Virus record (IMG/VR): IMGVR_UViG_2667527777_000004
Length of the DNA stretch: 5,360 nt
Source of the DNA: a virus
Lineage: Duplodnaviria; Heunggongvirae; Uroviricota; Caudoviricetes
Reading direction: 5' to 3' (one strand)
Below, in pieces: positions 1,985 to 5,304 of the stretch. Both the position numbers and the translations under genes were made by a program. Below the pieces are notes generated by a model. It was given only the letters and a program-made list of their open reading frames with translations, did not search any database and was not told the origin of the DNA. Numbering within the stretch: the first letter of the stretch is position 1; each line of letters opens with the position of its first letter.

Positions 1985-2059
<75 letters not shown>

Positions 2060-2132
2060 GTCAGAGTCTTTCAGTCTGCGATGATGGGAAATCCCGGAGT
2101 GACTGAAAGACGTTTAAGTTATGAATGATCGC

Positions 2133-2558
2133 TTTTTTTTGCAAAATTGCTGTGCAGAAATACTAACCTTCGGGCAGGCGATCATTCATAAGCACTCTGC
2201 TTTTATTCCGATTAACTGTGAGTGGTTTGTTGGATAGAGTGCTTTCCTTACTGTATATATCGTTTCGCCCGCTTTTGCGGTTTTTTCTTTTCAAATCCCT
2301 TTCATTTCTCAGTGTAAAACTACGCCATCCGTTATTTGCGNNNNNNNNNNCTTTTTTTGCAAAATTGCTGTGCAGAAATACTAACCTTCGGGCGTGCGAT
2401 CATTCATAAGCACTCTGCTTTTATTCCGATTAACTGTGGGTGGTTTGTTGGATAGAGTGCTTTCCTTACTGTATATATCGTTTCGCCCGCTTTTGCGTTT
2501 TTTTCTTTTCAAATCCCTTTCATTTCTCAGTGTAAAACTACGCCATCCGTTATTTGCG
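2133..2558 (+). repeat. Tandem direct repeat, two ~208-bp copies (2133-2340 and 2351-2558) separated by 10 N
   Basis: Copy 2 matches copy 1 at a constant offset of 218 bp with three differences seen by eye (gggcaggcg vs gggcgtgcg; ctgtgagtgg vs ctgtgggtgg; one extra T in a T-run). Copy 2 ends at the holin Shine-Dalgarno sequence. Each copy contains a short hairpin plus T-run (CCGC TTTT GCGG TTTTTT). Confidence 0.7.
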
Positions 2559-2569
2559 GAGGTGAGGCT

Positions 2570-2785
2570 ATGAAATCCATGGACAAAATTTCAACGGGCA
2601 TTGCCTACGGCACCTCCGCAGGCAGTGCTGGCTACTGGTTTTTACAGTGGCTTGATCAGGTCAGTCCGTCACAGTGGGCTGCGATTGGTGTACTGGGGAG
2701 TCTGGTTCTGGGCTTCCTGACTTATCTGACAAATCTGTACTTCAAAATCAGAGAAGACAAGCGTAAGGCTGCGAGAGGTGAATAA
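2570..2785 (+). CDS. Class II holin, phage-21 S21 pinholin type, with dual-start motif
   Basis: 71-aa product [30 protein letters not shown]...[19 protein letters not shown]; the two Met codons at positions 1 and 4 (MKSM) give the antiholin/holin pair typical of S21; two hydrophobic segments and a basic C-terminus. Strong SD GGAGGTGAGG upstream. Confidence 0.85.
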
Positions 2786-2805
2786 TGTCGCCATCATTAC
2801 GGTAA
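2785..2805 (+). pseudogene. Possible remnant of an R21-type endolysin start (MSPSLR-stop)
   Basis: ATG overlapping the holin stop (TAATG) encodes MSPSLR then TAA. This resembles the recalled N-terminus of phage-21-type SAR endolysins (MPPSLRK...) but ends after 6 codons. Relies on memory of the R21 N-terminus. Confidence 0.25.
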
Positions 2806-2868
2806 GCGCCCCATCAGCGACGTCTTGTGAAAATTGTCCTGTCTGGCAACAATCGCGCNNNNNNNNNN

Positions 2869-2995
2869 GGTCAGTCCATCACAGTGGGCTGCGATTGGTG
2901 TGCTGGGAAGTCTGCTTCTGGGGCTTCTGACTTATCTGACGAATCTGTATTTCAAAATAAGAGAAGACAAGCGTAAGGCTGCACGGGGAGAGTAA
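2869..2995 (+). other. Second, diverged copy of the holin 3' end (last ~41 codons plus stop); 5' part lies in or beyond the N gap
   Basis: Aligns with 2659-2785 at an offset of 210 bp with ~10 substitutions, nearly all synonymous. Encodes [41 protein letters not shown] versus ...SLVLGFL... in copy 1. Stop TAA at 2993-2995. Confidence 0.7.
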
Positions 2996-2998
2996 ATA

Positions 2999-3628
2999 AT
3001 GAAGCATGAAGAAATGAATCAGCGATTCAATCACCTGGAAAATGAAATCACTGAGCTTAATAAAAAATTGTCGGCGTTGGTGAGTTCTGAAGATGAAAAC
3101 AAACGCCGCGATGAGCATTATGCGGCGATTTACGATTACTGCCACAAAGTCGCTCACGAGACTTTTATGAAGTTTTTGCAGGAAAAGTTTTTACCGGCCG
3201 CATTGTCAGAAAAAGAGGCGGCTTACCTGCGGCCTGAGTACGTCATTACGGTTAACAGTGCCGGAGAGGAAGAGCATAAAAGTGATTTTATTGCGTCTGC
3301 ACCGGATAAAGACCAGGAACCCCATCGGCCTTTCAGGGTTTCCTGTGAAGAGGGTGAGTTCGTCGTTTATGAGAACGGAAAACCTGTCCGGGCATCGCAT
3401 CATCACTGCCTGAAAATTATTAATCTCGCTATCAGATGCCTGAAAGACGAAAACACCAGAGTTATGAAACGCATTGGCCGTTGCATGGGGTATTTGCAGG
3501 TGGCGGCAGAGATTGAAGCACTTGCCAGTGGTGCAGACATGGATGCTGCGGTGCGGGAGGCTCTTCTTCGTGATTTCAATACTCCCCCTTTAAGAAAGAG
3601 CCTGATGACTGGATCCAGCCGGGGCTGA
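2999..3628 (+). CDS. Hypothetical 209-aa soluble protein between holin and endolysin; no family recognised
   Basis: Long ORF with SD-like GGGGAGAG 7-14 nt upstream of the ATG, starting 3 nt after the holin-fragment stop. N-terminal ~40 residues are charged and heptad-like (EEMNQRFNHLENEITELNKKLSAL); central and C-terminal part has Cys/His clusters (YDYCHKVAH, RVSCEEGE, SHHHCLKIINLAIRCL, GRCMGY). No transmembrane segment or signal peptide is evident. Confidence 0.6.
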   Translation: MKHEEMNQRFNHLENEITELNKKLSALVSSEDENKRRDEHYAAIYDYCHKVAHETFMKFLQEKFLPAALSEKEAAYLRPEYVITVNSAGEEEHKSDFIASAPDKDQEPHRPFRVSCEEGEFVVYENGKPVRASHHHCLKIINLAIRCLKDENTRVMKRIGRCMGYLQVAAEIEALASGADMDAAVREALLRDFNTPPLRKSLMTGSSRG

Positions 3629-3693
3629 CTTATCTTAAAAGGCGTATATAAGTTGGCTCGTTATTTGTTGCCGATAAATCCTGATAAATATCC

Positions 3694-4227
3694 ATGAGCG
3701 CAAAAATCAAATACGGCCTGTCGGCTGCTGTTCTGGCGCTGATTGCCGCAGGCGCGTCTGCTCCCCAGATACTTGACCAGTTTCTGAACGAAAAAGAGGG
3801 TAATCACACAACGGCATACCGTGATGGTTCTGGCATATGGACCATCTGTCGTGGTGCCACAATGGTGGATGGTAAGCCTGTCATACCGGGAATGAAGCTG
3901 TCGAAGGAAAAATGTGACCAGGTTAACGCTATTGAACGTGATAAGGCGCTGGCATGGGTGGAGCGCAATATTAAAGTACCTCTGACCGAACCCCAGAAAG
4001 CGGGTATAGCGTCATTTTGCCCCTATAACATTGGCCCCGGTAAGTGTTTCCCGTCGACGTTTTATAAGCGGCTGAATGCCGGTGATCGTAAGGGCGCATG
4101 CGAGGCGATTCGCTGGTGGATAAAAGATGGTGGGCGCGATTGCCGCATACGTTCAAATAACTGCTATGGACAGGTTATTCGTCGTGACCAGGAAAGCGCA
4201 TTAGCCTGTTGGGGGATAGATCAATGA
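3694..4227 (+). CDS. SAR endolysin (GH24 T4-lysozyme-like muramidase with N-terminal signal-anchor-release domain)
   Basis: N-terminal Gly/Ala-rich weakly hydrophobic segment ([21 protein letters not shown]) followed by the catalytic E-x8-D-x5-T triad ([16 protein letters not shown]). Stop overlaps the Rz start (ATGA). Confidence 0.85.
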
Positions 4228-4691
4228 GCAGAGTCACCGCGATTATCTCCGCTCTGGTTATCTGCATCATCGTCTGCCTGTCATGGGCTGTTAATCATTA
4301 CCGTGATAACGCCATTACCTACAAAGAGCAGCGCGACAAAAACGCAAGAGAACTGAAGCTGGCGAACGCAACCATTACTGACATGCAGCAGCGCCAGCGT
4401 GATGCTGATGCACTCGATGCTAAATACACGAAGGAGTTAGCTGATGCGAAAGCTGAAAATGATGCTCTTCGGCGCAAGCTTGATAATGGTGGTCGGGTGC
4501 TCGTCAAAGGAAAATGCCCTGTGCCATCCTCAGCCGAAACCTCCAGCGCCTCCGGCATGGGCAATGATGCCACCGTCGAACTCTCTCCAGTTGCTGGACG
4601 AAACGTTCTCGGTATCCGGGACGGAATCATCAGCGACCAGACAGCATTGAGAATGCTTCAGGAGTACATCAGGACTCAGTGCCTGAAATAA
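4224..4691 (+). CDS. Rz: Rz i-spanin (inner-membrane spanin subunit)
   Basis: [34 protein letters not shown]...[19 protein letters not shown] closely matches lambda Rz as recalled: N-terminal TM helix, coiled-coil periplasmic domain. The track ORF starts 15 nt upstream at 4209; ATG 4224 is preferred from homology and the ATGA overlap with the endolysin stop. Confidence 0.9.
4444..4650 (+). CDS. Rz1: Rz1 o-spanin (outer-membrane lipoprotein), embedded in the +1 frame of Rz
   Basis: [21 protein letters not shown]: signal peptide with lipobox VVGC (Cys19), followed by a proline-rich mature region ([16 protein letters not shown]), matching lambda Rz1 architecture and its nested position. Confidence 0.85.
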
Positions 4692-4724
4692 ATTTTTTTG
4701 CAAATCACAAAGTCCATTTAATGA

Positions 4725-4748
4725 GCCTCGCACTTGCGGGGCTTTTAT
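4725..4748 (+). terminator. Intrinsic terminator downstream of the lysis cassette
   Basis: Stem GCCTCGC (4725-4731) pairs with GCGGGGC (4736-4742), one G-U pair, loop ACTT, followed by TTTTAT (4743-4748). Confidence 0.65.
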
Positions 4749-4893
4749 ATGTCCGCAGTAAACCGCGCATCGCAGCGCGTAACAATCCCGAGTCTTTCAG
4801 AAAGCTGAGCCTGAGAACTGCCGTATAGGTGAGGACCTCTCGGGGACGGCTTTTCTGTGCGAACAGGCTCAACTTTCTAAAGGAGATACCGAC

Positions 4894-5070
4894 ATGAACA
4901 AATCATTAACCGTTCTTCCTTCTGGCGAATACCCGACCATGAGCAGTCTTGAGATGGTGGATTACATTAATGCTGATCGGAAATCCAAAGCGGAGGCGGA
5001 GGGGCTTGCGTTCCCCTGTAAGAAATATCGCAAACTCGAACACCGCAGTTTCATGAAGAAAGTGAGGTAG
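4894..5070 (+). CDS. Short ORF (58 aa) resembling the N-terminus of Rha/antirepressor-family phage regulatory proteins; possibly truncated
   Basis: SD AGGAG at 4881-4885, 8 nt before the ATG. Product MNKSLTVLPSGEYPTMSSLEMVDYINADRKSKAEAEGLAFPCKKYRKLEHRSFMKKVR. Stop TAG at 5068-5070, ~50 bp before a 184-N gap. The family resemblance is from memory of Rha-like N-termini. Not in the supplied track because it is under 60 aa. Confidence 0.4.
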   Translation: MNKSLTVLPSGEYPTMSSLEMVDYINADRKSKAEAEGLAFPCKKYRKLEHRSFMKKVR

Positions 5071-5120: not shown

Positions 5121-5304
5121 NNNNNNNNNNNNNNNNNNNNNNNNNNNNNNNNNNNNNNNNNNNNNNNNNNNNNNNNNNNNNNNNNNNNNNNNNNNNNNNN
5201 NNNNNNNNNNNNNNNNNNNNNNNNNNNNNNNNNNNNNNNNNNNNNNNNNNNNNNNNNNNNNNNNNNNNNNNNNNNNNNNNNNNNNNNNNNNNNNNNNNNN
5301 NNNN
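5121..5304. other. Assembly gap (184 N); shorter 10-N gaps at 2341-2350 and 2859-2868
   Basis: Runs of n in the sequence. Both 10-N gaps sit exactly at boundaries of duplicated segments. Confidence 0.95.

Follow-up and report, generated by a model that had tools for sequence, protein, structure and literature searches.

The window analysed here is a DNA stretch of 5,360 nucleotides (IMG/VR record IMGVR_UViG_2667527777_000004, a virus of the Caudoviricetes), and the element in question is an open reading frame (ORF) of 209 amino acids at positions 2999-3628, located between the 3' end of an S21-type pinholin gene (S) and the gene of a signal-anchor-release (SAR) endolysin (R). As judged from sequence comparison, the ORF encodes, as a separate protein, the coiled-coil and C-terminal module of the long YdfR proteins (family phrog_1085), and in this copy the conserved tail of the family has been replaced through a frameshift. 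On balance we favour the view that phrog_1085-type modules are cytoplasmic accessories of the Q-dependent late operon of lambdoid, Shiga toxin (Stx)-type prophages in Escherichia, Shigella and Salmonella, encoded in or just upstream of the pinholin/SAR endolysin cassette and acting with the DUF1327 domain. The features of the ORF and its immediate surroundings are the following; strengths of the predicted segments are given as predicted local distance difference test (pLDDT) values.

2985..2992, plus strand: Shine-Dalgarno-like sequence GGGGAGAG within the holin 3' end, 8 nt ahead of the ORF start codon, read from the sequence
2999..3628, plus strand: the 209-aa ORF (ATG 2999, TGA 3626-3628), a stand-alone, frameshift-truncated member of the long-YdfR family phrog_1085 without DUF1327
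3005..3187, plus strand: predicted N-terminal helical hairpin or coiled-coil (residues 3-63), pLDDT about 58-84, common to phrog_2091, phrog_36381, phrog_15975 and the middle part of fused DUF1327 proteins
3188..3325, plus strand: acidic linker of variable sequence and predicted disorder (residues 64-109), pLDDT below 50, rich in indels among homologues
3326..3589, plus strand: conserved C-terminal core, predicted alpha/beta (residues 110-197), three strands followed by helices, with H136 and G160-R161-x-M-G-x-L-Q167-x-A-A-x-I-E173, pLDDT 74-87
3584..3592, plus strand: site of a 1-nt deletion, CCCCCTTTA here and CCACCCTTT or CCCCCTTTT in homologues; the frame shifts after P197
3589..3651, plus strand: remains of the tail conserved in the family, FKKEPDDWIQPGLTYLKRRI, readable out of frame as far as the ancestral stop codon TAA at 3649-3651, from translation of that frame

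The ORF had been described as not assignable to any family. In fact it belongs to a catalogued one: over its whole length (residues 1-209) it matched positions 117-288 of the 296-position PHROG profile phrog_1085 (E 1.2e-73, 249 bits), and the reciprocal profile search returned the phrog_1085 family only. The older statement holds in so far as the family has no characterised function. PHROG labels phrog_1085 as function unknown, and scans of the ORF against Pfam and NCBIfam gave no significant family. In all, 132 homologues were found. The exact sequence is likewise public already, in thousands of Shigella and E. coli assemblies, and the protein is recorded as a bacteriophage or hypothetical protein of Shigella flexneri in 3334 assembly blocks. 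The ORF is thus already known as an entity, both as an exact sequence and as a family, with no function assigned.

The homologues differ in architecture. The long ones (268-333 aa) are named 'YdfR family' or 'DUF1327 domain-containing' by NCBI. In these fused proteins PF07041, the Pfam model of DUF1327, covered the first 100 residues (E 1e-35 to 1e-43) and was followed by the coiled-coil and the module. The 333-aa 'YdfR family protein' P0004, in which PF07041 lies at 1-100, is 82% identical to the window ORF over 94% of the ORF; gp05 of the Stx2-converting phage 86 (YP_794052, 268 aa, also a 'YdfR family protein') has residues 63-201 in common with it. The long proteins (phage 86 gp05; E. coli P0090 and P0004, 296-333 aa for the latter group) occupy the same slot between S and R as the ORF and share the coiled-coil, the C-terminal core and its motifs. 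The window ORF differs from them in that it lacks both the N-terminal DUF1327 (no match at E <= 0.1) and the conserved tail of 20 residues. The stand-alone homologues (185-217 aa, labelled 'hypothetical proteins') have the same DUF1327-less architecture and the same position behind the holin, e.g. WP_001015158.1 in O157:H7 Rafaela_II and BCI98956.1 in the Stx2a phage Stx2_12E129. They are 48-89% identical to the ORF with indels in the linker, but their tail, ...PPFKK.P..W..PG.TYLK.RI, is intact. A third arrangement was split and permuted, consisting of the holin, a module gene (213 aa), a DUF1327 gene of 75 aa, an antisense ORF and the lysozyme gene. The N-terminal helices are a mosaic module of their own; they also occur in phrog_2091, phrog_36381 and phrog_15975, and tblastn matched residues 4-62 in PhiR12-type phages on other C-termini.

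The preliminary description had named a match to a YdfR/DUF1327-like lysis-cassette protein as the outcome that would make the gene ordinary. In spirit this is what was found, the ORF corresponding to the module of long YdfR proteins. It lacks DUF1327 itself, however, and no lysis role is known for YdfR.

That the ORF is a genuine prophage gene and not a chance reading frame follows from the match to phrog_1085, from the number of its homologues, and from pairwise ratios of nonsynonymous to synonymous substitutions (dN/dS) of 0.16-0.46 for the conserved core in the frame of the ORF. Clearly the family is under purifying selection. No competing feature was found over the ORF, neither on the minus strand in the ORF list nor as an Rfam family; the Rfam scan of the window detected four tRNAs only. 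The basic layout given earlier was confirmed. The ORF has its own Shine-Dalgarno sequence, GGAG, 8 nt upstream of the ATG and inside the end of the holin gene, the start codon follows the holin stop (TAA 2993-2995) after 3 nt, and a spacer of 65 nt separates the ORF stop from the endolysin ATG at 3694. The location of the Shine-Dalgarno sequence within the holin gene implies translational coupling of the ORF to the holin.

The protein is soluble by its composition, with a maximal Kyte-Doolittle mean over 19 residues of 0.76, a grand average of hydropathy of -0.63 and an isoelectric point of 6.1. In agreement with the preliminary description, the Kyte-Doolittle profile contained no membrane segment and Pfam and PHROG gave no match to a holin or spanin family, so that the protein is not a holin, antiholin or spanin. 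An AlphaFold2 model was made on the intact homologue P0002, which is 89% identical to the ORF, with an alignment of 49 sequences. It predicts helices at residues 3-27 and 31-63, in keeping with the coiled-coil-like N-terminus noticed before, and a C-terminal domain with strands within residues 113-130 and helices at 134-149, 155-176, 183-193 and 210-216. The profile places the core at positions 107-215. When the window ORF itself was modelled with a shallow alignment, the result was poor (pLDDT 53). Seven positions are invariant among the 49 aligned homologues, namely H136, I145, G160, R161, L166, Q167 and P197, and eight in the tail are nearly so (F198, K199, W205, P208, G209, Y212, L213 and R216). 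The core motifs characteristic of the family (F112, G119, H136, G160-R161, L166-Q167, A169-A170, I172-E173, R186, L190, F193 and P197) are all present in the window protein, and the gene lies, as expected of a family member, at a late-operon site in the holin-endolysin cassette of a lambdoid prophage.

The end of the ORF at 3628 is not the ancestral one; the conserved tail can still be read out of frame up to the TAA at 3649-3651. Comparison with homologues places the deletion of 1 nt in a CC(N)CCCTTT run at approximately 3584-3592. After ...NTPP the homologues continue with FKKEPDDWIQPGLTYLK(G/R)RI, and the window encodes the same peptide out of frame from 3589. In frame, the nearly invariant tail of 20 residues is replaced by 12 unrelated ones, LRKSLMTGSSRG, followed by the stop codon, and the tail signature F198-K199...W205..P208-G209..Y212-L213..R216 is missing from the window protein. 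In other words, the ancestral gene would have encoded 217 aa and the spacer to the endolysin would have measured 42 nt. The allele loses 8 of 21 nearly invariant positions (about 28 positions are conserved overall). Several complete genomes share this deletion, among them NZ_CP065613, where the coding sequence is annotated as the 209-aa protein WP_001300760.1. Lacking both DUF1327 and the tail, this copy is most likely a functionally impaired, decaying allele, to go by its sequence. The earlier suggestion of a decaying remnant therefore fits this frameshift-truncated allele; it does not fit the family, which is under purifying selection and includes intact genes.

A part of the module was detected in 1066 of 5426 complete E. 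coli genomes (about 20%). At least 80% of the allele was present in 79 of them and the exact allele in 6. When one genome per species was scanned, the family turned up in S. flexneri, E. coli and a single Escherichia sp. only. An exhaustive profile search of 1.84 billion representatives gave no more than 40 clusters at E <= 1e-3, among them two large proteins that were rejected as artefacts of repeat sequences, P0145 (HEAT/NACHT-like repeats) and P0157 (BspA-like leucine-rich repeats). In S. flexneri the host prophage is lambdoid and interrupted by insertion sequence (IS) elements, and Rz or the lysozyme gene is damaged in some genomes. At the S. flexneri loci L009-L012 (approximately 11200-12850) an IS element directly follows Rz1, and Rz or the lysozyme gene is truncated or missing in some; because of this the lysis cassette of the prophage is itself regarded as decaying.

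It might be thought unusual that a lysis cassette carries an additional gene between holin and endolysin, and the ORF had indeed been presented as such an insertion. In this prophage group, however, an occupied slot is the rule. The slot between holin and lysozyme was filled at the loci L001, L002, L003, L006, L007, L008 and L013-L016, and it routinely holds DUF1327, the module, or both. A survey of related prophages at this position had been proposed; it shows that the occupant varies and that the slot itself is regularly filled. At L016 the occupant is DUF1327 only. A counterpart of this arrangement is the Qin prophage of K-12, for which we take the gene order to be essQ-ydfR-rrrQ. Its YdfR (DUF1327, PF07041, 103 aa) resides in the same holin-lysozyme slot as the ORF and is linked to the module by fusion and fission. 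There is no sequence overlap between the two proteins, however, and the reported binding of RNase E and RNA belongs to the DUF1327 of YdfR.

A divergent branch of the family consists of 'hypothetical proteins' of Salmonella enterica prophages (190-338 aa, e.g. P0161 and P0126). They resemble the ORF in the core, which is conserved at about 30-43% identity, and in their location in the late operon beside the lysis genes; their tail is conserved and their N-terminal domain is DUF1327-like. They differ in being encoded upstream of the holin instead of in the S-R slot, in having A, S or T often in place of C162, and in C-terminal extensions of some members. On contigs from Salmonella and relatives the place of the gene is 20-700 bp upstream of the holin, in the interval that begins with Q; in one case the holin was of a different type. 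Neighbouring genes there encode ParE and a helix-turn-helix (HTH) protein, HicAB or an ArtA-like ADP-ribosyltransferase.

Several observations were made on the surroundings and the annotation of these relatives. Directly 3' of the YdfR-family gene, Stx phages of E. coli and one Salmonella prophage have a convergent ORF of about 104 aa (phrog_1853), 45% identical between the E. coli and Salmonella loci (L002 3493-3807, L018 4599-4916, L003 3654-3968 and L007 2470-2784, all on the minus strand); it is absent from the window. This arrangement suggests that the YdfR-family gene and phrog_1853 form a conserved two-gene unit. Cargo near the gene in relatives comprised an ArtA/pertussis-S1-like ADP-ribosyltransferase, ParE with an HTH protein, HicAB and, between lysozyme and Rz, a DNA methyltransferase (L018 2157-3137; L004 2136-2838; L020 2780-3434; L015 4004-4900). 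The stretch from Q to Rz is a general cargo hot spot.

The annotation pipeline PGAP calls intact YdfR genes 'incomplete, missing C-terminus', as at L006 1296-2189 (297 aa) and L007 1654-2460 (268 aa), from E. coli Seattle 1946 and 55989, respectively, where only the first 336 nt are annotated and the remainder is left blank. The mis-annotation looks systematic and appears to stem from a short YdfR model. The many loci that give the impression of a YdfR pseudogene followed by an unannotated 3' fragment had raised the idea that the family is mostly decayed; this was rejected, the ORF listing showing intact genes for the 297-aa and 268-aa proteins.

Homology does not reveal a function. Among the family and structure searches, the one against PHROG succeeded, but Pfam was silent on the ORF and Foldseek gave no match at E <= 1e-3 in either PDB or BFVD. 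Across all 49 aligned homologues Pfam recognised DUF1327 alone, in the fused members. A sequence search of PDB with two profiles returned nothing below E 0.07, and PADLOC returned 0 defence families at E <= 1 for the ORF. A literature search on the accession numbers, on phrog_1085 and on the gene 'between S and R' yielded nothing on function, and a comparative paper on Stx phages leaves the gene undiscussed. The only functional lead is that the module and DUF1327 are recurrently joined in one gene or split into two. A 2026 study reported, from two-hybrid and pull-down experiments, binding of K-12 YdfR (DUF1327) to the N-terminal, catalytic half of RNase E, and also co-purification of RNA (PMC13232886).

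From this literature on the partner domain and from the recurrent gene fusion and fission, an RNase E- or RNA-binding accessory role may be proposed. The gene would be translated from the Q-dependent late transcript in a manner coupled to the holin, because its Shine-Dalgarno sequence lies in the holin 3' end, the gap to the holin stop is 3 nt, and a simple consensus scan of the plus strand from 2000 to 4800, which could miss a non-canonical promoter, gave no promoter-like site. The protein may oligomerise via its N-terminal helices and, since fusion and fission of the two genes recur, is proposed to work together with DUF1327 domains, the reported binders of the RNase E catalytic domain and of RNA. 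During lytic growth it could serve to tune the turnover of RNA, the expression of late genes or the timing of lysis, and the protein itself would stand outside the lysis machinery proper.

Several points weigh against this reading. The link to RNase E concerns DUF1327, a domain which the ORF does not have, and gene fusion is circumstantial evidence of joint function. The AlphaFold2 model of the intact homologue is moderate, with a mean pLDDT of 66 and a predicted template modelling score of 0.45, and the promoter scan, being based on a simple consensus, could have missed a promoter of non-canonical type. As regards impairment of the window copy, the identity of the truncated allele in thousands of isolates speaks for clonal descent and not for loss of function, and the truncated allele could retain activity.

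A different explanation, which we consider unlikely, would make the protein a cytoplasmic regulator of lysis timing that binds the charged, cytoplasmic C-terminus of the pinholin, or else the SAR endolysin while it is still unreleased, and so delays or sharpens triggering in the manner of the antiholin cofactor RIII of T4. The location of the gene is suggestive here: across two genera and two types of holin it stays next to the holin gene (in the S-R slot in E. coli and Shigella, 20-700 bp upstream in Salmonella and relatives), its start is coupled to a holin stop 3 nt away, and the product is soluble with a helical hairpin that is predicted to oligomerise. T4 RIII and other cytoplasmic lysis regulators are likewise small, soluble and genetically tied to a holin. 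These are the only features in common, however; there is no similarity of sequence or fold and no sign of holin binding, and Pfam, PHROG and Foldseek revealed no similarity to any known antiholin or lysis regulator. Moreover, near-identical holin and endolysin alleles occur with another occupant of the slot (DUF1327 only) or, at the S21/R21-type junction of the left contig (2782-2790), with none, which argues that the module is dispensable for lysis. Adjacency to the holin may also reflect no more than a cargo hot spot in which toxins, toxin-antitoxin systems and a methyltransferase are found nearby.

In a further explanation, also improbable in our view, the gene is moron-type cargo (serving defence, anti-defence, superinfection exclusion or host fitness) and is unrelated to lysis or phage RNA metabolism. 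The mosaic presence of the module in about a fifth of complete E. coli genomes, in widely differing alleles and architectures, would be expected of cargo, and so would the classical cargo neighbours (ParE/HTH, HicAB, the ArtA-like ADP-ribosyltransferase and the DNA methyltransferase). That the phrog_1853 ORF is conserved beside the gene in E. coli as well as in Salmonella points to an autonomous unit of two genes. On the other hand PADLOC gave no match and no promoter-like site was seen upstream on the plus strand. The gene is co-oriented and translationally coupled with the late genes, and it keeps its place with respect to the lysis genes, whereas typical cargo is shuffled.

The Cys/His clusters to which possible metal binding had been attributed are a real property of the window protein, which contains 5 Cys and 10 His residues including SHHHC. 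The clusters are lineage-specific, however, and not a conserved feature of the family. Only H136 is invariant among the 49 homologues. C162 is kept in 32 of 49 and is A, S or T in the other 17, and H134 is kept in 29 and replaced in 20; C48 occurs in 21, C137 in 8 and C116 in 7 of the 49, and H49 and H53 are missing from most. There is therefore no conserved group of three or four Cys/His ligands, and neither Pfam nor Foldseek found a zinc-finger or other metal-site family or fold. A metal (zinc) site is thus largely refuted and a very improbable explanation of the gene. Equally far-fetched is a bypass of the frameshift, by which low-level -1 ribosomal slippage on C CCU UUA (3585-3591), or slippage during transcription, would bring back the full 217-aa protein and leave a functional, perhaps regulated allele: although the heptamer is of the X XXY YYZ type and a -1 shift recreates the ancestral ...NTPPFKKEPDDW... 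exactly, it is a trivial outcome of a deletion in a C/T run, no stimulatory structure was detected downstream (z-score -0.21 versus shuffles), intact homologues use no frameshifting and the prophage is decaying.

For annotation, the result means that the ORF is not a new orphan: it is a phrog_1085 member that is truncated and lacks DUF1327, and it resides in a decaying Shigella prophage. The intact family is more interesting than this copy, since it is under purifying selection, possibly has a new fold and occurs, at least in part, in about 20% of complete E. coli genomes. It adjoins the lysis genes, where toxin cargo (stx, artA-like) also sits, and is tied to an RNase E-binding domain by fusion and fission. 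Should the intact protein act on the stability of late mRNA or on the timing of lysis, it could have an effect on the release of toxin from Stx phages. The preferred reading of a late-operon accessory has a bolder and decidedly speculative extension, to which we attach little probability: that the C-terminal module is a previously undescribed fold which serves as effector or partner of DUF1327 in a late phage system engaging RNase E and RNA, that this system controls the stability of late transcripts or the timing of lysis, and hence the release of Shiga toxin in Stx-type phages, and that it is carried by one fifth of complete E. coli genomes, the window copy being a degraded example.

The ORF is flanked by an S21-type pinholin (PF04971), a phage lysozyme and Rz, and the S21-type cassette context recognised earlier is thereby borne out. 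The flanking features are as follows.

2570..2785, plus strand: complete pinholin gene (PF04971, E 1e-35), on a different contig and from a paralogous prophage; its adjacency to the ORF is not physically proven
2869..2995, plus strand: 3' end of the S21-type pinholin gene preceding the ORF; the contig begins after the N gap at 2859-2868, and the stop codon TAA is at 2993-2995
3694..4227, plus strand: R21-like SAR endolysin (PF00959, E 1e-24; phrog_7), with an Ala/Gly-rich N-terminal segment read from the translation
4209..4691, plus strand: Rz i-spanin (PF03245, E 2e-30)
4444-4650: Rz1-like lipoprotein ORF embedded in Rz, from the ORF list

The presence of two pinholin sequences is explained by the composition of the window. 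Runs of N occur at 2341-2350, 2859-2868 and 5121-5304, and the first two gaps are flanked by near-duplicate sequences (2133-2330 resembles 2351-2548, and 2659-2785 resembles 2869-2995). Because of these gaps and duplications the window is a scaffold of contigs broken in repeated prophage DNA. Positions 799-2772 were 97.5-98.8% identical to a prophage of the L016 type (Q, tRNAs, holin, short YdfR and lysozyme), and positions 2869-4624 were 99.8% identical to S. flexneri loci. By this comparison the part to the left of 2859 derives from a different, 96-99% related prophage than the part to the right, and the full holin at 2570-2785 is assigned to the paralogous prophage since the contig parts match different prophages and an N gap lies between them. 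The pinholin 3' end at 2869-2995, which shares about 90% identity with the corresponding end of the complete holin, is the only holin sequence contiguous with the ORF. The contiguity is seen in the complete genomes L001 and L009-L012, and complete genomes confirm the order holin, 3 nt, ORF, 65 nt, lysozyme.

Behind the complete holin, positions 2782-2858 read ATGTCGCCATCATTACGGTAA. A start, MSPSLR, overlaps the holin stop and is closed by a stop codon after six codons. The stretch looks like the start of an R21/DLP12-type lysozyme, and the paralogous prophage may thus have a canonical S-R junction whose lysozyme has become a pseudogene. Four prophage tRNA genes are located between Q and the holin at 1750-2059, namely a CAT-anticodon tRNA of the Met/Ile2 type, Lys-TTT, Thr-TGT and Gly-TCC; at the related locus L016 the RefSeq label of the first is tRNA-Ile. 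Finally, an ORF of 58 aa (MNKSLTVLPSGEYPTMSSLEMVDYINADRK...) without a Pfam match lies 3' of Rz at 4894-5070, ending about 50 nt before the N run at 5121, and resembles the N-terminus of the Rha/antirepressor-type proteins that follow the lysis genes in Stx phages.

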